A DNA stretch of 64,000 nt from Mobula hypostoma (GCF_963921235.1 NC_086097.1:2914001-2978000); one strand, 5' to 3'. Positions 14,264 through 64,000 are shown, numbered from the stretch's first letter. Numbers and translations: made by a program. Notes: a model not told the origin generated them from the letters alone.

Positions 14264-16451
14264 GTGAGTTAATAAAGCAAATATCAACATAATAATGTAG
14301 TACAATGGTTAAAAATATCCAGGGGAGGAGATACCGGAGGCGGTGTGGGCGAGAGCTGGAGTCCATGCTGGGTTGGGGCTGCCTTCCAGAATTTGCTTGC
14401 TGGAACACGAGTTGGTTTGCGTTCATCAGCAGCTGTACTAGCACGTGATGATGACTGCTGTGTGGTGGTCCTTGCAGAAACGTGTCTCCAGGACAACATT
14501 GCATGCACCATCAATCTTCAGGCTACGATACTCAGGAAGCTGGACTATATATTTAATTGTGACTGTTTTTTGCTGTCGTGACTATATATGTGCTGACAGT
14601 GACTGTTGATGCAGTTTTGCACCTTGGCCCCTGGAAAATGTTTTGTTTGGCTGTATTAATATGTACGGGTGAATGACAATTAAACTTGAACTTGAAATGT
14701 GTTGGAGCTGCATGACATCACAGTACTTTGTAACAAAGCAATTCTGGCATTCATCATTTTATAAAGTGGAGATGACCCAAGATTAATCGAGATAACAAAT
14801 ACAAATCAGCAAAAGAGATATATCAGCACACACAAAAGGCAGGAGGGACTCAGCAGGCCAGGCAGCATCTGTGGAAACGAATAAACAGTTGATGTTTTGG
14901 GCCGAGCACCTTTATCAGAACACCTTTATTACTTCAGTTTGTGAAAAGAGATATAGCTGTCATTTGGATAAGTTTTAGACCATAAGATTTAGGAGCAGAA
15001 ATAGGCCATTTGGCCCATCGAGTCTGCTCCACCATTCAATCATGGGCTGATCCACTTCATCCAGTCATCCCCACTCCCCTGCTTTCACCCCATACCCTAT
15101 GATACCCTGGCTAATCAAGAACCTATTTACCTCTGCCTTAAATATACCCAATGACTTGGCCTCCACAGCCGCTCGTGGCAACAAATGCTACCCTCTGACT
15201 AAAGTAATTTCTCCGCATCTCTGTTCTAACAGGACGTCCTTCAATCCCGAAGTTGTGCCCTCTTGTCCTAGAAACTCCTACCATGGGAAATAACTCTGCC
15301 ATATCTAATCTGTTCAGGCCTTTTAACATTTGGAATATTTCTATGAGATCCCCCTCATTCTCCTGAACTCCAGGGAATACAGCCCAAGAGCTGCCAGACG
15401 TTCCTCATATGGTAACCCTTTCATTCCTGGAATCATTCTTGTGAGCCTTCTCTGAACCGTTTCCAATGTCAGTATGTCCTTTCTAAAATAAGGAGCCCAA
15501 AACTACACACAATAGGCCAAGTGTAGTCTCATGAGTGCCTTATAGAGCCTCAACATCACATCCCTGCTCTTATATTCTATACCTCTAGAGATGAATGCCG
15601 ACATTACATTCGCCTTCTTCACAACCGACTCAATCTGCGGGTTAACCTTTAGGATATCTTGCACAAGGACACGCAAGTCCCCTTGCATCTCTGCATTTTG
15701 AATTCTCTCCCCATCTAAATAATAGTCTGCTCGTTTACTTCTTCCACCAAAGTGCATGACCATACACTTTCCAACATCGTACTTCATTTGCCACTTCTTT
15801 GCCCATTCTCCAAAACTGTCTAAGTCTCTCTGCAGGCTCTCTGTTTCCTCAACACTACCCGCTCCTCCACATATCTTTGTATCATCGGCAAATTTAGCCG
15901 CAAATCCCTTAATACCGCTGTCCAAATCATTGACATACATTGTAAAAAGCAGTGGTCCCAACACCGACCCCTGTGGAACTCCACTGGTAACCGGCAGCCA
16001 GCCAGAATAGGATCCCTTTATTCCCACTCTCTGTTTTCTGCCAATCAGCCAATGCCACACCCATGCTAGTAACTTCCCTGTAATTCCATGGGCTCTTAAC
16101 TTGTTAAGCAGCCTCATGTGTGACACCTTGTCAAAGGCCTTTTGAAAATCCAAGTACAGCACATCTACTGCGTCTCCTTTGTCTACCCTGCTTGTAATTT
16201 CCTCAAAGAATTGCAGTAGGTTAGTCAGGCAGGATCTTCCTCTCAGGAAACCATGTTGGCTTTGGCCGATGTTGTCATGTGTCTCCAGGTACACCGTAAT
16301 CTCATCCCTAACAATCGATTCCAACAACTTCGCAACCACTGATGTCAGGCTAACAGGTCTATAGTTTCCTTTTTGCTGCCTCCCACCCTTCTTAAATAGT
16401 GGAGTAACATTTGCAATTTTCCAGTCATCCGGTACAATGCCAGAATCTATC

Positions 16452-16620
16452 TGTACTGTATAGCTACTGTATAATACTGCATGTGCTATTAGGCATGTAT
16501 TGATCTGTACGTGTATGTTCAGAGTTTGGTTTCAGTCAGTAAAGAACCCTGTTAACTTAGCTCCTGTCTCCAGCATTTTTATTTATAGGTTTGTTGTGTA
16601 ACCCGGCCACATACACAATA
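16452..16620 (+). repeat. 5' LTR
   Basis: About 90% identical by eye (~17 mismatches) to 19666-19887 apart from a ~53-bp indel. Confidence 0.9.
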
Positions 16621-16986
16621 AATTGACAACAAGGTTAATGAACCTACATCATATTGGAACGCCGTGTTTTAATTGATAACGACACCTGGAAGGAGAGCGC
16701 AAGGTATGAGCCAAGGCAGAGCGAGGCCGTGAGTCCGAAAGGAAACAGAAGCACAGCTGCAGGTCGGGAACATTGGGAGACCAAGAGAACAGTCGGAGCA
16801 GCAGCATATCCAGCCGAGACCACAGCCGGCGCTGACCCCAGGGGCTGAGGGTCTGCCTGCCCCAGAAGGGAGATAAAAAGAAGCAACACACACATCTAGA
16901 CGGAGTGCGCTCATGGCGCTAGCAAAAAGGACACATGAGTCAAAAAGAAAACAAGGGGAATATGGGGCTAAACTAACATAACAAAG

Positions 16987-17975
16987 ATGGCGTTGATTGG
17001 AACCATTACAGATTTGATAGTGGCACTGAAGACTGGGCAATTTACATTGAAAGAGTGGAGTTATATTGTGAGGATAATGGTGTTAATGATGAAAAGAAAG
17101 CCAGCGTCTTACTCAGTATTATGGGAGCAAAAACTTATGGGCTGCTTCGGAGTTAACCCCTGAAAAGCCAGCTGACAAAACGTTCAAGCAAATAGTAGAC
17201 ACTCTCCAACAGCGTTTAAACCCCAAACAACTGGCCATTGCTGAAAGATTTAAATTTCACAAACGGAATCAGAGCAAAAACGGAAGCATTTCTGAATATT
17301 GTGCTGAATTGAGCAAATTATCAGAACATTGTCAATTTGGAGCTGGTCTATCGCACGCATTGAGGGACAGGTTAGTGTGTGGCATGCACTGTGAAGCCAC
17401 ACAGAAGAAGCTCCTGGGTGAAAAAGACCTTACATTAGAGAAGACGCTGAACATTGCAATATCAATGGAAACAGCAGCATGGGGTGCTTCAGAGATACAA
17501 CAAAAATCTCTGGAATATGCTACAAATAAAATGTCACTGAGCAGAAACAAAGGAAGGAAATGTTACTGTTGTGGGAATGTGTCACATGACCCTGAGGACT
17601 GTTGGTTTAAAGACAAAGAATGCAGAAACTGTGGCAAACAGGGCCACACTGGCAGAGTATGCAAAGCTAGTAAACAGCAGAAAAAGGACAAAATACAGAG
17701 AAACAAGAAACCCCAGAAAGGAAAACACAACAATGAAAGAAGGCTAAAACGAACTAAACTACTGCTAAAGCCTTACACAGGACAGAAAGTGCATCCCAAA
17801 GGTAAAATTAAAGTGACAGTGACCCACGGAGGTAAAACACAGCAACTGACCCTCTATGTACTGAAAAAGGGAGGACCACCATTACTGGGACGTGAATGGA
17901 TCAGGAAAATCCAGTTGGATTGGCACACCATCAAGACACTAGATGTGTTAACAAAGGAGGGCAGCTTGGCGGAGA
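16987..17975 (+). pseudogene. Gypsy gag plus partial aspartic protease (frameshifted 5' part)
   Basis: ATG 16987 MALIGTI.., [37 protein letters not shown] knuckles [14 protein letters not shown] and [14 protein letters not shown], protease C-half PLLGREW lacking the DTG site. Confidence 0.88.
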
Positions 17976-17977
17976 AG

Positions 17978-18647
17978 ATGTCCGCAGCTCTCCTCTCACC
18001 CATTGTCGACTATTACAACAACGAGGAGTTAGACAGCGTCGATGATGAGGACGAACGCAGTATCCGTGGCTGCGACTCGGATGAAGATACAGAGGATGCA
18101 AGGGAGACAAATACTGCCAATAAGCAGGATGATGAAGACTACCTGGAAGTAAAAGAGCAGATGTACCAGGAAAAATTGACATCTCCCAAAAGACAGCTAC
18201 AGCAGATACAGGAAGGCACTTTGCAGGAGTATCAGAAAAGGATGAAGAAACTAGGTCAACAATACAAGGAAAGAATACGAAATGCAGAGCTTTTTCTGCA
18301 ACTGGAGCCAGAATAACTTGAAAGGAATTATATTAAAGAGAAAAAAGCAGCAGTGAAGGAATTTGAAGATAAAAAGATTGAGTTAGAAGGGAAAAAAGAG
18401 GATTGAGTATGAGAGGCTAACAATGGAACTCACAGGAGATTCTATGGAGGTAAAGCCAATAATGACTAAGAAACTAAGGAGGAGACCTAATGACCCTGTT
18501 CCAATTACAGACAAAAGACAAAAACCTGCACCTGCGCAGTTAAATTACTTGTTGACAGATGAACAGATAGTGGAAGACCTGTGAACTCTCAATAACCTTA
18601 AATCTCCGAAAAGACCTGCATCTCCATCTTCTCCTGAACAATTTCCT
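17978..18647 (+). pseudogene. SUDS3: Processed SUDS3 (Sin3/HDAC complex subunit SDS3) retrocopy fragment, in frame with gag
   Basis: [58 protein letters not shown], then after TAA 18314-18316 ERNYIKEKKAAVKEFEDKK, and after a deletion/frameshift [57 protein letters not shown]; no introns; C-terminal part missing. Confidence 0.92.
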
Positions 18648-19440
18648 TGGGAAAGATCCATGAAAATTGGTCATCCCTTAAAAGCTCTCGGACAAAATCA
18701 ATTCCATTCAAACAGAACAGTTTTCGCACAAGGTAAATCTTGAACCAATCATTTCCTCCATTGAGAATCATTCACTTAATCCTTTGCACTGAAGTTTCTT
18801 TTGCACGTACATATTTTGAATCCTCAGTCAATGTGTCTTGTTTTGCACAAAGAAGTTGGGAATCAGCATCAAAACAGAGGTGAATTCTGGCAACAAACTG
18901 TGAGGTTTCTATTGTTGTATTTTCACACTTGTGCTGAGTGTGCGTCTGAAGGAATTCCCCGTCTTGAGTCAGGTCCGCACTCTCTTCTTGCACTGTGCAC
19001 AACTGGGAGTTTTCATACATAGAATCCTCCAGACAATTCAGAAACAGTGCATAGAGTTCAGTCTCATTTCCTTGACCAAGATTTGTTTTTTGAACTTTAG
19101 ACAGATAGCACTGCAGGTAATCCTTAATATCAGCAAAACTGTACTTTAACAGCAGCTTAAGAACAATGGAATGAGCAACAGGATTTTGATCAACTGCTTC
19201 TTCAAGTAATGAATGATTACTGGTAAAGTGCTGATCTTTCTGTGAGTCATTGGATTACCCGGACTTTTGAATAACTAGCAGAGACAGCAGATCACCAACC
19301 ACTTCTTTTGGAAACCAAAGCTACGGAAAATGCATCACACCTCTTGCGAAATATAACTAATTTTGCTACAGCTTCACTTATTTCTTCTGTTACTGCTGGT
19401 ACATAATCATCATCTAGAGAAATATGACACAGTGGGCAGA
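18631..19440 (-). pseudogene. RNF213: Processed RNF213 (mysterin) fragment, end of RING through following E3 region, antisense to the element
   Basis: Minus strand reads CPLCHISLDDDYVPAVTEEISEAV..FRKRCDAF..KEVVGDLLSLL..SIVLKLLLKYSFADIKDYLQ..TELYALFLNCLEDS..VARIHLCFD..NDWFKIYLVRKL..WIFPKEIV, matching RNF213 (human VILKLLLKYSFHDVKDYIQ, TELYMLFINCLEDS, NDWHRVYLVRKL, WVFPKDVV); two stops and one deletion. Confidence 0.88.
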
Positions 19441-19665
19441 GTCCCCCCCAGAGACTTGAGTTATAAATGGGTCTTAGACCAAAAGTGGAAAAAAAAGGCT
19501 TGTTATAATTTGATATTATTACGTTACTTTGTTATAATTTGATATTGTTAAGTTACTAAGTAAACAATTTGTAGGCATTTGTATGTTAAGGGTAAACATA
19601 CTTGTTTAGCGTAGTGCCCCAGTAAAAAAAAAGGTTGATACACTATTAAAATAAAAGGGGAGGAG

Positions 19666-19887
19666 TGTACTGTTCAGCTACTATATAATATGGGACTACT
19701 TTATGTTGTAGGGACATGTTGCATGCGCTATTATGCATGTACTGAGCATGCGCTATTAGGTGCGTATTGATCTGTAGGAGTGTGTTCAGAGTTCGGTTTC
19801 AGTCAGTAAAGAGCCCTGTTAACCTAGCTCCCGTCTCCAGCGTTTTTATTTATAGCTTTGTTGTGTAACCCGGCCACATACACAACA
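19666..19887 (+). repeat. 3' LTR (followed by PBS-like motif and a duplicated LTR tip to 19915)
   Basis: Follows the PPT; TGTACTG...CACAACA. Confidence 0.9.
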
Positions 19888-21110
19888 AATTGGTGACAAG
19901 GTCACATACACAACACTATCGATTCGTGAAAGATCACCGTTGACGCCTCCGCAATCTCTTCAGCTACTTCCTTCAGAACCCGAGGGTAAATTCCATCAGG
20001 TCCAGCAGATTTATCCAACCTCAGACCATTAAGCTTCCTGAGCAGCTTCTCAGTCGTAATTTTCACTGCACAAACCTCACTCCCCTGACACTCTTGAATG
20101 TCCGGTATACTGCAGACGTCTTTCACTGTGAAGACTGATGCAAAATACGCATTCAGTTCCACTGCCATCTCTGTACCTTTCGTTACAATATCTCCAGCGT
20201 CATTTAGTATTGGTCCTATATCTACCCTCGACTCTCTTTTACCCTTTATATATCTAAAAAAGCTTTTAGTATCTTCTTTAATATTAGTCGCCAGCTTCCT
20301 CTCATAATTCATCTTTTCCTTCCGAATATCCTTCTTAGTTTCCTTCTGCAAGTTTTTAGAAGCTCCCCAATCCTCTATCTTCCCATTCCCTCAGGGGTGG
20401 AAATTTTTGAAACATTTATGGAAATGTTTCCGACTACCACATAGTTCCTATGGGAGGACCACAATCTTGCCGTAGGGGTCGGAGGTTTGTATGCCTGAAT
20501 GACCCATTGAGCTCTGTTGGCTGGAGTTGGGGCTTTATGCTTTGGTTCTTGGTCGGGTCACCCATGCCGAACAGATCAAAGGTAAAGGCCAGACTAAGAA
20601 TGGTCCTCTTTGTTTGGGAGTTCTGCTCAGGGCAAACAACCGTGATTGGTCAAAAAAGTTGTCATGGAAACAGCAATGAAAAATCCTTATATATCTGTGT
20701 GCGATCAAGGACAGACAGAGATGGAGGACCTTCATTGCTGCCCTAAACACCAGTGAGAAAGCCACATAGTTACTCTTAGGGGAAAAATAATTTATTGGCT
20801 GTAAAGAAAATGAAATTCTGATCAATCAACCCTTTGTCAGTGAGGTACTCAAGTAAATGTACTTTTCAATTGAGATGAATGGCTTCAACACTGTGAACTC
20901 ACCCATGAGAAAGGGTCTTGGCCTGAAACATTGACTGCTTATTCATTTCCATAGATGCTGCCTGATCTTCTAAGTTCCCGCAGTGTTTTGTGTGTGCTGC
21001 TCTGGATTTTCAATATCTGCAGAATCTCTTGTCATTGTCAACCCACCCTCTCTGTTTTTGGATATTGAAAGTTAGTTGCTTTTACTTGAACCTCTGTTGT
21101 TCTTTCTCAG

Positions 21111-21151: not shown

Positions 21152-22187
21152 GTGAGTTCTGAATTGGGAGTACTTTAGTAAGGTGCAGTCTATTCACATC
21201 ATTTTTGTTCAAGCAATTTTTTGAAGGCCTCGATCAGCCAGAGCTGACCTTGGATATTGCGTCCCAGCTGTCCACATATGCCAGCCAGGGCAGTATGATA
21301 TGGGGAACAAGCATGTAGCAAGCTCCCCCTCTCCGTGCATTTGATGAACCCAAAGGAATGGCAGAGACTGATACAGTTTGGTACCAGCAGCATCGCAAAA
21401 ATTGCCAGTCAACATTGAACTCAACGTAGGACACCCTTAGGAGCTCCAGCTCCGGATTTTTCCCTCTGGGTTTACTCCTGAATCCTTCCAAATAGTGGGT
21501 ATAGCCGCAAGGTAGTGGCGTTTGAGATCAGAATTTTCCTTCCCCTAGATGAGCTGACAGACACGGTTAATGAGCCCCATCTGCACGAAGTGACTGGTTT
21601 TAAGGTGCTAGAAACCTGCCTTTGCCTCTCCTCCTGTCAGTAGTAATGGATCTGCCAGGCTGAGTAGCTAAGCCACACTTGAAGGCCAGGAGCTGGACTT
21701 GCTTGTCAGAGGCTATTTGAGGTGCACGCCTTTGGGAGCATTTAATAGGTAGTGGGAGCTTGTCCCCATTACCACCCCTGGCTACAACAACCCTAAGGAA
21801 CCATGTACAGACAGGAATGTTTCAGTAATCCTGAAATGTTTATTTTTAAAAGGAAGCGCTAGGCTTCACTAATCTTTTGTCAGTGAGCAGTTTATTAGTT
21901 AAGGCAGGGAGGAGCTCCCTCCAGAGCAGGGGTTTCCAAATTTTTTTATGTCATGGCCTCTGCCATTAACTGAGGGGTCTGTGGACCCCAAATTGGGAAC
22001 CCTTGATTGAGAGGAAATAAGTTGAATGGATGGTAGGGAGTAAACAATTCCGGGGAAGGCTACAGGGTGTGAGGAAGATGTTAATGTTTTCTCTTGTTAC
22101 TTAGAGATACAGCACGGTAACAAACCCTTCTGGTCCACAGGTCTGTGCTACCTAGTTGCATATATATGACCAATTAGTCTACTAATC

Positions 22188-22775
22188 CATAAGACCTAGG
22201 AGCAAAATTTGGTCATTTGGCCCATCGAGTCTGCTCCGCCATTCCATCATGACTGATATATTATCCCCCTCAACCACATTCTCCTGCCTTCTCCCCAAAA
22301 CCCTGCTCCCTGATTAATCAAGAACCCATGAACCTCCACCTCAAAAACACCCAATGACTTGGCCTCCACAGCCACCTGTGGCAAAGAATTCCACAGATTC
22401 ACCACTCTGGCTAAGGAAATTTCTTCTCATCTCTAAATGGACGTCCCTGTATACTGAGGCTGTGTCCTCTGATCCCAGACTCACACACCACAGGAAACAT
22501 CCCATCCTCCCCACATCCACTCTATCTAGAGCTTTAAATATTCAATAGGTTTCTGTGAGAACCCCCCCTCCCCCTACCAACTCACTCTTCTAAACTCCAG
22601 TGAGTACCGGCCTTGAGCCGTCAGATGTTCCTCATATGTTAACCCTTTTATTCCTGGGATCGTTCTTGTGAACCTCCTCTGTGTCCTCTCCAATGCCAGC
22701 ACATCTTTTTTTAGATAAGGGGCACAAAATTGCACACAATACTCTAAGTGCAGTCTGACCAATGCCTTATAACAC
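22188..22775 (-). mobile_element. CR1 LINE 3' fragment
   Basis: VRLHLEYCVQF, QRRFTRTIPG, YSLEFRR. Confidence 0.85.
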
Positions 22776-23814
22776 CTTAAAACCCATTAAATTTTGAAAA
22801 GTGGTAGGAAACTGGAGAACTGGAGCACCTGGAGGAAACCTCATGTGGTCATGGGGAGAGTGTAAAAACTCCTCACAGACAGCGATGGGATTTGAACCTA
22901 GATTGCTGATGCTGTAGTGTTCTGCTAGCCACTAAGCTACCATGCCCCTCTTTCATAAAAACTTTTCATGTAATTATTTTGAGTGTTCTGTAACAACCCC
23001 TTTAGTATCTTGTCTATGTTGTCTATAGTAAATAGAATGCCTAAGCATTCTCCAATTGATGGTGAGTTAAAATATGTACATTCATTGAGATCCTATGACA
23101 CTATAAGCCCCACTATATGATAATGGCAGGGTGGTGTGTTCTCTGTTATTTCCCTCACAATACAACCCCTGCTGGTAAAGAATGTACGTATTTTTCAGCC
23201 TTCATTGTATTTCACTTATTTAGTATCGGTCCTTCTGGCCCAACAGCTGCACCACCCAGCACCCACCTATCTGATCCAGATCACAGGACAATATACAATG
23301 ACCAATTAACCTACGAACCTGGTACATCTTTGGACCGTGGGAGGAAACCAGAGGTCCTGGAGGAATTCCACACGTTCATGGGAAGAACGTACAAACTTGC
23401 AGGCAGAACATGCAGGAAATGGGCAAGGTAACCATCAGTCCATAAGAACATAAGAAATAGGAGTAGGAGTAGGCCACCCGGCCCATCGAGCCTATTCTGC
23501 CATTCAATAAGATCATGCTGATCTGACCATGGACTCATCTCCACCTACCTGCCTTTTCCCCATAACCCTTAATTCCCCTACTAGGCAAAACCTATCCAAC
23601 CTTGTCTTAAATATATTTACTGAGGTAGCCTCCACTGTTCCACTGGGCAGGGAATTCCACAGATTCACCAGTCTGGGAAAAGCAGTTCCTCTTCATCTCT
23701 TTCCTAAATGTACTTCCCTGAATCTTGAGTCTATGTCCTCTAGTTCTAGTCCTACCTACTAGTGGAAGCAACTTTCCTGCCTCAATCTTATCTATCCCTT
23801 TCGTAATTTTATAT

Positions 23815-57445: not shown

Positions 57446-57591
57446 GCGTTGGTGCTAAGAACTCAACCAGAATTGTTGCGCATGCATTCTGCTCTAAGTA
57501 GTTTGGGTCTTGAACCTAGAAATGTTAAGTGCTTAGAAGTATTGGTGATTGTGGCTTATTTAATTAATACAAAGATTTTGCTCCTCAATAG

Positions 57592-57821
57592 AATTGCAGC
57601 TCACACGTGAGGAGAGCTGTTGTAACCTGCTTCTCAGCAGGATGCTGCGGTCGCCATGGAAACAGGCCTGTGCGCTACTGTAAGAGATGTCACTACAACT
57701 ATCATTCCAGTGAGATTGGTGCTGGATCAGAGGCCCACCTTTACCAAACTTCACCCCCTCCGATGAACACCCGAGAATGTGGTGCAGAGGAGCTGGTTTG
57801 TACTGTGGAATCAGTAGTCAG
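57592..57821 (+). CDS. UNC79: UNC79 coding exon
   Basis: caatag|AATTGC...GTCAG|gtaaac; NCSSHVRRAVVTCFSAGCCGRHGNRPVRYCKRCH...ECGAEELVCTVESVV; 230 bp, ends phase 2. Confidence 0.96.
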
Positions 57822-59082
57822 GTAAACAATAATATCAGTCAGAAAATACTTCATTCTGAAGATCTGTTGCACTACTTGTTTATAAACTATTTCACATCTT
57901 CGGTGGTTAATTTTGTAACAGTTGGTATAACTCCTGTTGTAAATGTATTCCTTGCATCACAGTTTTGCTCTTTTATGTACATACTTCTCATAGTTGTCTG
58001 AGCTCTAATGTCTTGAATTCGTTCCCTAATAATTTCTATCATTTTATTTTTCCCTTTCCACCCTGCACTACCTCCCTCTCCTCCTGCCATTCTAAGGTAC
58101 CTTTAAAACTTAGCACTGTGGCTATGACTTTGGCAAGTGCCCAAATATGGCTTTTGAGTCTAATTTGTCTGGCAATTCACTTTTTCAGCTCTTTATGTGT
58201 GCTTTTCTGAATTAAAGCTCTACAGAAAGTTAACATTTGTTTAAATATTTCATTTTTTTCCCATTTGAATCACTTCTTCATCCCATTCCTATCAGGGAGG
58301 AGGCTACGTAGCATTCATGCCAGGACCACCAGTCTCAAAAGCAATTACTTTCCCCAAGTAATAAGACTGATCAACACCTCCACCCACTAACTCCACCACT
58401 ATTTTTCCCCCCTGTCAGTCACCTTATGTACAGCCTGGCAACACTTTATGGATATATAATCAATGTATTAAGTTATGAATTTATATTTATGTTTTTATTA
58501 TGACTATGATGTTTATCTTTGGATTTTTTTGTGTGCTGCATCCGATCCGGAGTAACGCTTACTTTGTTCTCCTTTATGCTTGTGCTCTGGAAATGACATT
58601 GATCAATCTTGACAACCTTGAAAATGTTGGTTTATGTTTGAAGTAAAGGTTGCAATCGTGGAAAGTCTGGAAAGTTGCCTTTAATCTGCCTGTTTCCTGT
58701 TTTAATCGAGATGGGTGGCCAAGCATTCCTAGGAATCAGATTGATGACATAAACACTACAATCAGGCATCTACTTTCATTTCAACAGTGCTTCTATTTCT
58801 AAACTAAAGACAGCTCAGTTTTTCAGGTTTGGGATATCTGGCAGCTGACAATAAGTGAAATGGGTTGAATCTATGTAGTAATCAATGTTTGTGGGCCAGC
58901 AAGAGACTGAGTGTTTCTTCCAGTCACCAAGCTATGCCACTGAGCTCCAAACCTGGGAGGTGTCTACTTTGGTCCAAACCCTTGACCACCGTCAGCTCTT
59001 TCCCTCTAGCCCCTATTTGCTTTTCTGGTACAAAATTTCAAGATCGTCTGGATTGTTTAATGTCACTTCCAGTACGTGAGTG

Positions 59083-63065: not shown

Positions 63066-63197
63066 AATTTAATAAAAATGGTAAGTTCTGTATATGCTGG
63101 GCAATCCAATCATTAGGTTCTGAATGGTGCAGCAAAGATGACAATTTGCTCAAATAATTTACTCAAAATTTCTGTGCTTACTTCCTTTATTGTGCAG

Positions 63198-63428
63198 GTC
63201 AGTCTTTGCACTCCAAGTGAAAATACACCCACAGAAAGTTTAGCCCGATTGGTAAGCATGATGTTCCAGTGGTTTCATTGCACTGCCTACATGCTGGATG
63301 ACGAAGTGGGAAGCCTCGTGGAAAAGCTGAAGCCTCAGTTTGTCACTAAATGGTTGAAGACTGTTTGCGATGTTCGATTTGATGTGATGGTCATGTGTCT
63401 TCTTCCCAAACCGATGGAGTGTGCAAGA
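63198..63428 (+). CDS. UNC79: UNC79 coding exon (last in window; gene continues downstream)
   Basis: gtgcag|GTCAGT...GCAAGA|gtgagc; VSLCTPSENTPTESLARLVSMMFQWFHCTAYMLDDEVGSLVEKLKPQFVTKWLKTVCDVRFDVMVMCLLPKPMECAR; 231 bp. Confidence 0.96.
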
Positions 63429-64000
63429 GTGAGCTTTTTTTAATATGACAGTTTGTAAGAATGCTTATTTGTGTCCCCAAGTTTCAGTATACTGTAGTCA
63501 TAAAATCTCCTTCCACACTGGATCAGAAATAATCTATTTCATTTGTGATTCATCACGTAAATGAGCAGCAAACTCTGGAATTGGCATGATTTATTATTGC
63601 TTCATGTAGCGAGATACAGTGAAAAGCTTGTTTTGCTTTGTGTTCAAACAGATCAGATGATTACACCATGCATTGAGCTGATACAAGATAAAACAGTGAT
63701 AGAATGCAGGATAAAGTGTAGCAGTTACAAAGAATGTGTAGTGCAAGTAGGCAATAAAGGGTTAGATCATACCGAGGTAGATTGTGAGGTCAAGAGTACA
63801 TCTTACCATACTAGCAAAGTATTCAATAGTCTTATAATAGTGGGTAGAAACTGTGCTTGAAATTGTTAGTATGTGCTTTCAGGGTGTTTGTATCTTCTGC
63901 CCAGTGGGGAAGGGGAGAAGGGAGAATATCTGGGGTTTTCAATTATGCTGGCTACTTTACTGATGTAGCAAGAAGTACAGACAGAGTCTATGGAGGGGAA

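Follow-up and report, generated by a model that had tools for sequence, protein, structure and literature searches.

The window, which is the whole 64,000-nucleotide stretch of Mobula hypostoma DNA analysed here (GCF_963921235.1, NC_086097.1:2914001-2978000), contains a non-autonomous LTR element of 3464 nt (~3.46 kb) at positions 16452-19915. Within the element we observed two pieces of host coding sequence, a SUDS3 cDNA that runs in the sense of the element and an RNF213 sequence that runs in the opposite direction, with the element on the plus strand and RNF213 on the minus strand. The features of the locus are:

16447..16451, unstranded: left target-site duplication CTATC, the same 5 nt recurring at 19916-19920
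16452..16651, plus strand: 5′ LTR, beginning TGT, ~50 nt shorter than the 3′ LTR
17093..17965, plus strand: gag with CCHC knuckles and a protease remnant, the first part of a 407-aa ORF
17966..18637, plus strand: SUDS3 (SDS3) cDNA in sense, intron-less and decayed, with ~12 nt of 5′ UTR and then Met1 (ATG 17978) to ..SSPE
18630..18637, unstranded: 8-nt microhomology TCTCCTGA at the primary left junction, common to sense SUDS3 and the reverse-complemented RNF213 mRNA where exons 6 and 7 meet
18631..19443, minus strand: antisense RNF213 cargo, 813 nt in six exon pieces
19443-19377, minus strand: cargo exon piece, the last 67 nt of the RING exon
19376-19236, minus strand: cargo exon piece with a 32-nt deletion
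19235-19139, minus strand: cargo exon piece
19138-19027, minus strand: cargo exon piece
19026-18828, minus strand: cargo exon piece
18827-18631, minus strand: cargo exon piece
19444..19652, plus strand: tail of the pol ORF (..PQRLEL*) and 3′ untranslated region; the pol C-terminus of locus L040 ends here
19653..19665, plus strand: polypurine tract AAAAGGGGAGGAG, read directly, abutting the 3′ LTR
19666..19915, plus strand: 3′ LTR, TGT..ACA
19916..19920, unstranded: right target-site duplication CTATC

The two LTRs are identical at 151 of 175 aligned positions, with a 157-nt core at 89% (86-89% overall). A TGG.. motif near 16655, after the 5′ LTR, is a candidate primer-binding site, and its position, as well as that of the 3′ end of the 5′ LTR, is approximate. 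Removal of the element rejoins a CR1-like LINE ORF on the minus strand (..VIFHESI|DSGIVPDDW..), the two flanking halves of which match RVT_1 (E 1.7e-31). The 407-aa ORF on the plus strand (17093-18316) starts in gag and continues into SUDS3, the border between the two near 17965 being based solely on contigs that diverge there. Gag matches Retrotrans_gag (PF03732) with an E value of 1.6e-5 and 25.5 bits, just above the cut-off of 24.1, and its closest relatives are fish retroelement polyproteins with PF13975 and PF00078. The element is putatively Ty3/gypsy-like. Apart from the protease remnant and the final codons pol is missing from the window copy; the pol tail of L040 gave nothing above the Pfam cut-off, with a sub-threshold match to SRA1 only. 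Pfam recognises plus-strand UNC-79 exons ahead of the window, inside it at 57586-57822 and 63192-63431, and past its end. As these exons stand on both sides of the element, it sits within an UNC79 intron and in the same orientation as that gene.

The SUDS3 cargo contains the Sds3 domain (PF08598) in the plus-strand Pfam search, and it is identical to the devil-ray SDS3 protein P0030 at 103 of residues 1-113 (91%), starting from Met1. Stops appear from 18317 onwards. The closest named SDS3 proteins come from devil rays and sawfish.

On the minus strand, positions 18631-19443 hold 813 nt of intron-less RNF213 sequence. The earlier note had described ~800 bp of RNF213 coding homology on the minus strand, at 18631-19440, with the LTR, gag and SUDS3 on plus; PDB matches, the exon alignment and Pfam bear this out, and the coordinates given there are off by no more than 3 nt. 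A 160-aa minus-strand ORF (18772-19254) matched nine of the nine RNF213 sequences listed from the PDB (E 2e-23 to 7e-23), aligning best over residues 4057-4205 of chain 7oik_A. Set against gag and the UNC79 exons, all on plus, these matches make the cargo antisense to both the element and UNC79, as had been proposed. Three minus-strand ORFs of the cargo were also searched against Pfam and gave no family.

A search for the parent gene with the Pfam RZ-finger profile led to two RNF213-like loci on contig C68, and 70 kb was examined at each. The reverse complement of the cargo aligns with six consecutive, separate exons of the genome's own RNF213 gene at C68 48,817,008-48,833,773. Piece by piece the identities are 92.5, 76.7, 89.9, 94.0, 87.5 and 94.9%, the 76.7% piece including the 32-nt gap, and the overall identity between the window cargo and the spliced gene is 91.8% (ungapped columns, 813 in all). 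The second RNF213-like locus matches the cargo at just 33-46% at the protein level. All internal exon borders of the cargo correspond to ag|..|gt splice sites and 16.8 kb of introns are precisely missing. The cargo derives from a spliced mRNA covering several exons. It is composed of several spliced exons, six in the window copy and eight in the longer sisters, as the earlier reading expected. This excludes a lone genomic exon and a duplication of the gene at the DNA level, either of which would have told against that reading.

The cargo ends at the exon 6/7 junction on one side and inside exon -1 on the other, or inside exon 1 in the window copy. The corresponding spliced interval of the gene, 1158 nt in eight exons, is an open frame of 386 aa that includes the RING finger, and the parent is intact there. 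In the window copy the projected gene frame is broken by one 32-nt deletion and two in-frame stops. The cargo is not an intact RNF213 gene or paralogue, since the frame is broken in the window and in all 25 cargo sequences examined. A LINE-type processed pseudogene nested in the element was rejected, as the cargo consists of internal coding sequence that lacks the 3′ end of the mRNA and is bordered by an A-run on neither side.

RNF213 exon 7 and one upstream exon, both lying just beyond the captured interval, gave one candidate each genome-wide, which was the gene itself. As the exons that flank the interval are single copy, no free RNF213 retrocopy was found. It had been argued in the earlier note that a cargo in this orientation needs an antisense template, for example a transcript through a processed pseudogene, or else a switch onto cDNA. 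The pseudogene transcript is disfavoured by the single-copy flanking exons, with which the searches led back to the gene alone, and the need for an antisense template is not supported, as the junction anatomy fits sense mRNA; a switch onto cDNA has a low probability.

The exon 6|7 splice was also seen in an RNA contig of run X5, from a related data set, showing that the gene is expressed and spliced as inferred. The loose ends of the X5 contigs over the cargo continue into exon 7 and into the RING exon, so this cover represents real spliced RNF213 mRNA and is uninformative on expression of the element. None of 24 sequencing runs listed for the stretch was on record as RNA or contained half of its sequence words, and contigs from four runs were compared with the window. 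In runs that may be either DNA or RNA, one contig (X19 record 13) spans the left junction and another (X1 record 7) the right.

A genome search with positions 18600-19460 returned 251 first-look candidates in the 3.48-Gb assembly, and the best 40 were scored, giving 48 matched pieces. Besides the window, 24 places aligned as a single piece with the 861-nt query, from its first position to position 837 or further; they span both junctions and are 84-92% identical to the query. As these come from the best 40 of the 251 candidates, 24 is a lower bound. The loci sampled throughout are the best-scoring candidates, and counts of variants among them are not usable as frequencies. With the 3′ end of the element (19444-19902) as the query, 1569 candidates were returned genome-wide. 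The capture of RNF213 is an ancient event at the level of the family and not a feature of the window locus alone.

The cargo sequences of the window and its 24 sisters are 91.2-93.6% identical to the gene, and 17 near-full sequences have a mean identity of 92.2% among themselves. All 24 sister cargo sequences analysed have a common cargo frame. At 28 of 845 columns at least 80% of the 17 near-full sequences have a common base that differs from the gene. The gene-rooted tree of the cargo is star-like, with a stem of 0.038 and a root-to-tip distance of 0.055 ± 0.009 (n=34); the value for the window copy, 0.057, agrees with the divergence of its LTRs. Every one of the 25 cargo sequences contains at least one indel of a length that is not a multiple of three, 18 of the 25 have stops in the projected frame, and differences between gene and cargo occur at rates of 0.063, 0.089 and 0.079 at codon positions 1, 2 and 3. 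To judge from these patterns, the cargo sequences represent the neutral decay of an old burst, and we favour a single capture event that would have been followed by amplification.

Sister copies also allowed us to order the events. Two loci without RNF213 (L041 and L042) carry SUDS3 in sense to its stop codon and ~110 nt of 3′ UTR, followed by the last pol codons, and keep ~30 nt more upstream of the start of the pol tail than the window does. The 3′ part of SUDS3 gave 336 candidates, and among the best 40 of these, the ones scored, all 40 were full length at 92-100% identity. The C-terminus of pol in L040 (..PQRLEL*) ends just where the sequence after the cargo starts in the window. We favour an order in which the SUDS3-only form would have preceded the capture of RNF213.

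The 116 nt of the RING exon that lie just upstream of the start of the window cargo gave 46 candidates, and 39 of the best 40 are outside the gene. Nine of these places were examined, and in eight (L043, L045-L051), which are all eight of the copies carrying exons -1 and 0, we observed a longer form of the cargo. Its layout is SUDS3, then antisense RNF213 from exon 6 back into exon -1, then SUDS3 again. RNF213 ends there in mid-exon, two exons upstream of the RING exon (candB 25786). SUDS3 is then taken up again 19 nt upstream of where the window copy leaves it, and runs on to the stop, the pol tail and the LTR. The structure of the long copies means that the RNF213 piece (eight exons, 1158 nt) was inserted into the SUDS3 cargo and not appended to it.

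The six-exon form in the window is a deletion derivative, with a secondary right junction at 19443/19444. A copy on C58 with the window-type left junction (L044) includes the RING exon in full and 48 nt of the exon beyond it (exon 0), and its pol tail is joined at 19446. Two independent right-hand deletions in the pol tail, at 19443 and 19446, thus end 3 nt apart, either by coincidence or at a hot spot. A 128-nt deletion is common to the long copies and to copies with the window-type right junction (L035, L036, L037 and L039), and its presence in both subfamilies requires us to assume either recombination between them or recurrent deletion. No single examined copy has both primary junctions, and the ancestral architecture, which would combine the window-type left junction with the right junction between exon -1 and SUDS3, is put together from two derived forms. 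Independent captures in the long and short forms were considered and rejected, as the SUDS3 insertion sites are at most 10 nt apart and the two forms have common deletions.

At the primary left junction SUDS3 has ..CATCTCCATCTTCTCCTGA|GCATC.. where the reverse-complemented RNF213 mRNA has ..GATGTC TCTCCTGA|ACAATTTCC.., and the first base of exon 7 belongs to the shared 8 nt. Contigs derived from RNF213 diverge before 18630/18631, one into exon 7 and one into an intron, while SUDS3-type contigs diverge after 18637, so that the two sets of break points bracket the junction independently. Since the cargo stops precisely at the final base of exon 6, we considered whether the exon 6 donor had been spliced to a cryptic acceptor in an antisense element, and rejected this because the SUDS3 match covers the end of the exon, its 8 nt including the first base of exon 7; the purine-rich tract upstream of the would-be acceptor also disfavours it. 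The primary right junction, present in the long copies, reads ..AAAAGTGACAG|CATCTCC.. against ..AAAAGACCAG|CATCTCC.. in SUDS3. The match here is CAG, 3 nt that are exact within AAAAG..CAG (8/11 overall). When the window-type left junction is combined with the long-type right junction, a 19-nt duplication of SUDS3 would flank the insertion, of which just 9 nt are present on both sides within a single copy. Short similarities also accompany the later losses, with TCCAT at or near the edge of the 77-nt left deletion of the long copies, CTGG at that of the 128-nt deletion, CA at that of the 32-nt deletion in the window and a GGCAGAG similarity beside the right junction of the window.

We consider it most probable, at roughly 0.58, that the RNF213 piece was acquired by a template excursion onto RNF213 mRNA inside the particle, which would need no antisense RNA, and that it was then amplified and decayed as a neutral passenger. 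A non-autonomous, Ty3/gypsy-like family would first have transduced a nearly full-length SUDS3 cDNA in sense. In the ancestor of one subfamily the reverse transcriptase would then have made a single template excursion in the particle. Its exit from SUDS3 would have been at TCTCCTGA, where the DNA end would have paired with UCAGGAG|A, the sequence in which exons 6 and 7 meet in a spliced RNF213 mRNA packaged in the same particle. Eight exons of that mRNA (1158 nt) would have been copied before the enzyme rejoined SUDS3 at the CAG microhomology, 19 nt upstream of its exit. The outcome would be RNF213 placed backwards inside SUDS3 with a 19-nt SUDS3 duplication on either side. The chimeric element would have kept moving in trans and multiplied until its candidate copies numbered in the hundreds or more. 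Internal pieces would have been lost through deletions flanked by microhomology, and loss of the stretch from the RING exon to the pol tail would have produced the six-exon form of the window.

The version of the excursion that we favour places it in plus-strand DNA synthesis, with ordinary sense mRNA as the template, since no extra antisense molecule is then required. Plus-strand strong-stop synthesis copies RNA, namely the tRNA primer. The junction anatomy fits a plus-sense DNA 3′ end, ..TCTCCTGA, that would have been extended on sense mRNA. An in-particle route is favoured in that the recombinant would automatically keep intact LTRs and be integrated, and in that capture of co-packaged mRNAs guided by microsimilarity is documented in animals, in the available text of PMC5131818. 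The junctions themselves are mute on the strand and the compartment of the switches, and the 19-nt duplication would equally be left by a target-primed insertion in the genome.

Such an insertion at the DNA level is the first alternative to be weighed. A nicked or broken genomic copy of the SUDS3-only form would offer the plus end ..TCTCCTGA, which would be extended on RNF213 mRNA, for example by a LINE reverse transcriptase, in a target-primed or break-repair retroposition with internal priming at the microhomology; the cDNA would be rejoined and the copy would later serve as a master in trans. Here the orientation is free, the putative 19-nt flanking duplication fits well in its resemblance to a LINE-type target-site duplication, both junctions have microhomologies and CR1-like LINEs with reverse-transcriptase ORFs adjoin the element. 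The cargo, however, comprises 1158 nt from within a very long mRNA, with neither poly(A) nor the mRNA 3′ end. The insertion would also have had to strike an element copy of ~3 kb that went on to be transcribed and packaged, and LINE-derived sequence is not seen at the junctions. We regard this route as unlikely, if one that deserves to be taken seriously.

It is also conceivable, at a probability that we would put as distinctly low, that the excursion took place in the particle during minus-strand synthesis, with a switch onto antisense RNF213, either first-strand cDNA or an antisense transcript, and then back. The same microhomologies would work in this direction, and the imperfect similarity to the right of the exit (13/16) would fall in the part already synthesised. 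Retroviral recombination is mostly a minus-strand process, which counts in its favour. An extra, hypothetical molecule is needed, however, RNF213 cDNA or a spliced antisense RNA, and no retrocopy was found that could give a spliced antisense transcript, the flanking exons being single copy. The plus-strand version, the minus-strand switch and the insertion into a genomic master predict the same sequences.

The reading of the cargo as a neutral passenger can be set against a functional one, raised from the complementarity of the sequences. Transcripts driven by the LTR, or read-through transcripts such as UNC79 pre-mRNA, might pair with RNF213 mRNA or feed siRNAs or piRNAs and so dampen this innate-immune E3 ligase, to the benefit of the element or in host regulation. 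The antisense orientation is suitable, and the complementarity would suffice for antisense or siRNA pairing, as perfect runs of at least 21 nt to RNF213 mRNA are present in the window copy. This copy keeps 11 such exact runs with the gene, the longest of 61 nt, and 428 of 825 gene 21-mers have an exact counterpart in one or more of the 25 cargo sequences. The cargo-bearing subfamily did amplify, and the RNF213 gene is expressed and spliced in the related RNA data set. Endo-siRNAs from pseudogenes in mouse oocytes, small RNAs that target the parent gene, are a functional analogy only. Against a function stand the neutral-like decay, the repeated truncation by 32-, 77- and 128-nt deletions and by loss of exons -1 to 1, the age of the copies (~5.5% private divergence) and the SUDS3-only form, which amplified at least as well (336 against 251 candidates, both lower bounds). 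We therefore consider a functional cargo highly improbable. It is just as doubtful that hundreds of LTR-driven copies with the reverse complement of RNF213 might lower defence, or that the host might have co-opted the cargo to tune RNF213. The regulatory idea would matter more than the others, and what speaks for it is complementarity alone; if true, this would be an anti-defence cargo borne by a retrotransposon in a vertebrate.

The closest known cases are the LTR-mediated retrocopies of animals, which have microsimilarity at the switch points and include chimeras of several genes (Tan et al. 2016, PMC5131818, in its available text). As in the cases described there, an LTR retrotransposon encloses an intron-less piece of host mRNA, the two ends of the piece fall within the mRNA, poly(A) is absent and more than one parental gene contributes to the chimera. 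The microsimilarity at fusion points is 5-10 bp in that available text and 8 and 3 nt in the Mobula element. Unlike the cases in the same text, the second cargo of the Mobula element is antisense, lies inside the first and is accompanied by a probable 19-nt duplication of the donor, and the chimera stayed mobile, with hundreds of candidate copies, whereas those cases are single loci. We found no mention of cargo orientation in the available text of PMC5131818, supplements aside, nor in PMC3726574.

Transduced sequences are usually in the sense of the element and present in one or few copies, according to the available portions of PMC7264820 and PMC11963269. In the oncogene captures and maize Bs1 treated in those portions, as in our element, host sequence replaces most of pol and helpers are needed, and SUDS3 resembles these transductions in being in sense and following gag in one ORF in the window copy. 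The Mobula element differs from them in having one antisense cargo and many copies, and since the antisense piece is intron-less it does not come from read-through capture of flanking DNA. The antisense additional ORFs of Grande1, RIRE2 and Retand, as covered in the available text of PMC7264820, are similar in being antisense, between pol and the 3′ LTR, upstream of the polypurine tract and in many copies. These plant ORFs have no cellular homologue and are conserved in coding, according to the same portion, whereas the parent of the Mobula cargo is known exon by exon and its frame is broken in 25 of 25 sequences. The W-linked Masculinizer retrocopies, as far as the available text of 10.1101/2022.04.04.486979 describes them, likewise combine many retro-derived copies with possible antisense transcription against a parent gene in single copy, a functional analogy only. 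Our literature search found no description of the Mobula-element family or of an antisense transduced cargo that spans exons, the supplements of PMC5131818 aside. What we describe is LTR-mediated gene capture that differs by an antisense cargo, insertion into an earlier cargo with a probable duplication of the donor, continued mobility and surviving intermediates.

Gene capture by LTR elements in animals has been known from single loci, with the captured pieces said to lie in the sense of the element. 'SDS3-like' and RNF213-like fragments in genomes of this kind may be element cargo, which calls for caution in annotation. The locus belongs to a vertebrate family that stayed mobile after two successive captures, leaving the states before, after and trimmed side by side in one genome. 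It offers a base-level record of how an antisense piece may originate, in which synthesis would leave SUDS3 where 8 nt match the sense mRNA and return 19 nt further upstream. It also leads to the testable claim that a reverse transcriptase, while it extends a plus-sense DNA end, may switch from its template to an mRNA packaged alongside.

The LTR element, which lies within an intron of UNC79, is also what split a CR1-like LINE in the window, and the two halves of this LINE rejoin in frame across the 5-bp target-site duplication. Dispersed direct repeats of three families (D1, D3 and D4) are found on both sides of the element, and by appearance they are 3' portions of that CR1-like LINE/SINE family. 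Two coding exons of the host gene were located further downstream; the UNC79 exons covering positions 97-262 of the Pfam UNC-79 profile were not found by a strict first-look search.

Features of the window surrounding the LTR element
15503-16451 and 19921-20390, minus strand: CR1-like LINE with an RT ORF (RVT_1 match, E 1.7e-31)
14980-15553, 22187-22780 and 23448-23512: dispersed direct repeats, families D1, D3 and D4, 74-88% identity
57586-57822, plus strand: UNC79 coding exon, Pfam UNC-79 positions 262-335
63192-63431, plus strand: UNC79 coding exon, Pfam UNC-79 positions 387-466

Relative to most of its sister copies, the element in the window lacks ~215 nt of the gag/protease region at 17735/17744, and contigs aligned to the window have loose ends at 17735 and 17747. 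This deletion may be the source of the unbroken 407-aa gag-SUDS3 ORF in the window copy. Two other copies in the genome assembly, L040 and L047, are further deletion derivatives, and L047 retains neither gag nor the 5' part of SUDS3. The cargo copy L009 carries insertions of 954 nt at the window equivalent of 18650-18654 and of ~640 nt near 19504-19511, both of which are presumably nested repeats.

Further copies of the element family
C96:38464550-38466050 (L040): deletion derivative, gag immediately followed by the C-terminal portion of pol
C1:217157290-217158860 (L047): deletion derivative, LTR and leader fused directly to the antisense RNF213 piece
C45:61405637-61409453 (L009): cargo copy with two insertions

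The contig that carries the RNF213 parent gene contains, 7.5 Mb away, a second RNF213-like locus, which shares only 33-46% identity with the cargo at the protein level.

C68:41236601-41306600 (L021-L027): this additional RNF213-like locus, which includes an RZ finger

Sister copies without the RNF213 piece form a SUDS3-only subfamily (336 first-look candidates), in which L041, L042 and copies at further genomic places carry the complete SDS3 coding sequence and ~110 nt of 3' UTR in sense orientation behind gag. Several devil-ray proteins annotated as 'SDS3-like' (P0043, P0046, P0049, P0055, P0073 and P0096) may be element-borne copies and not genes.
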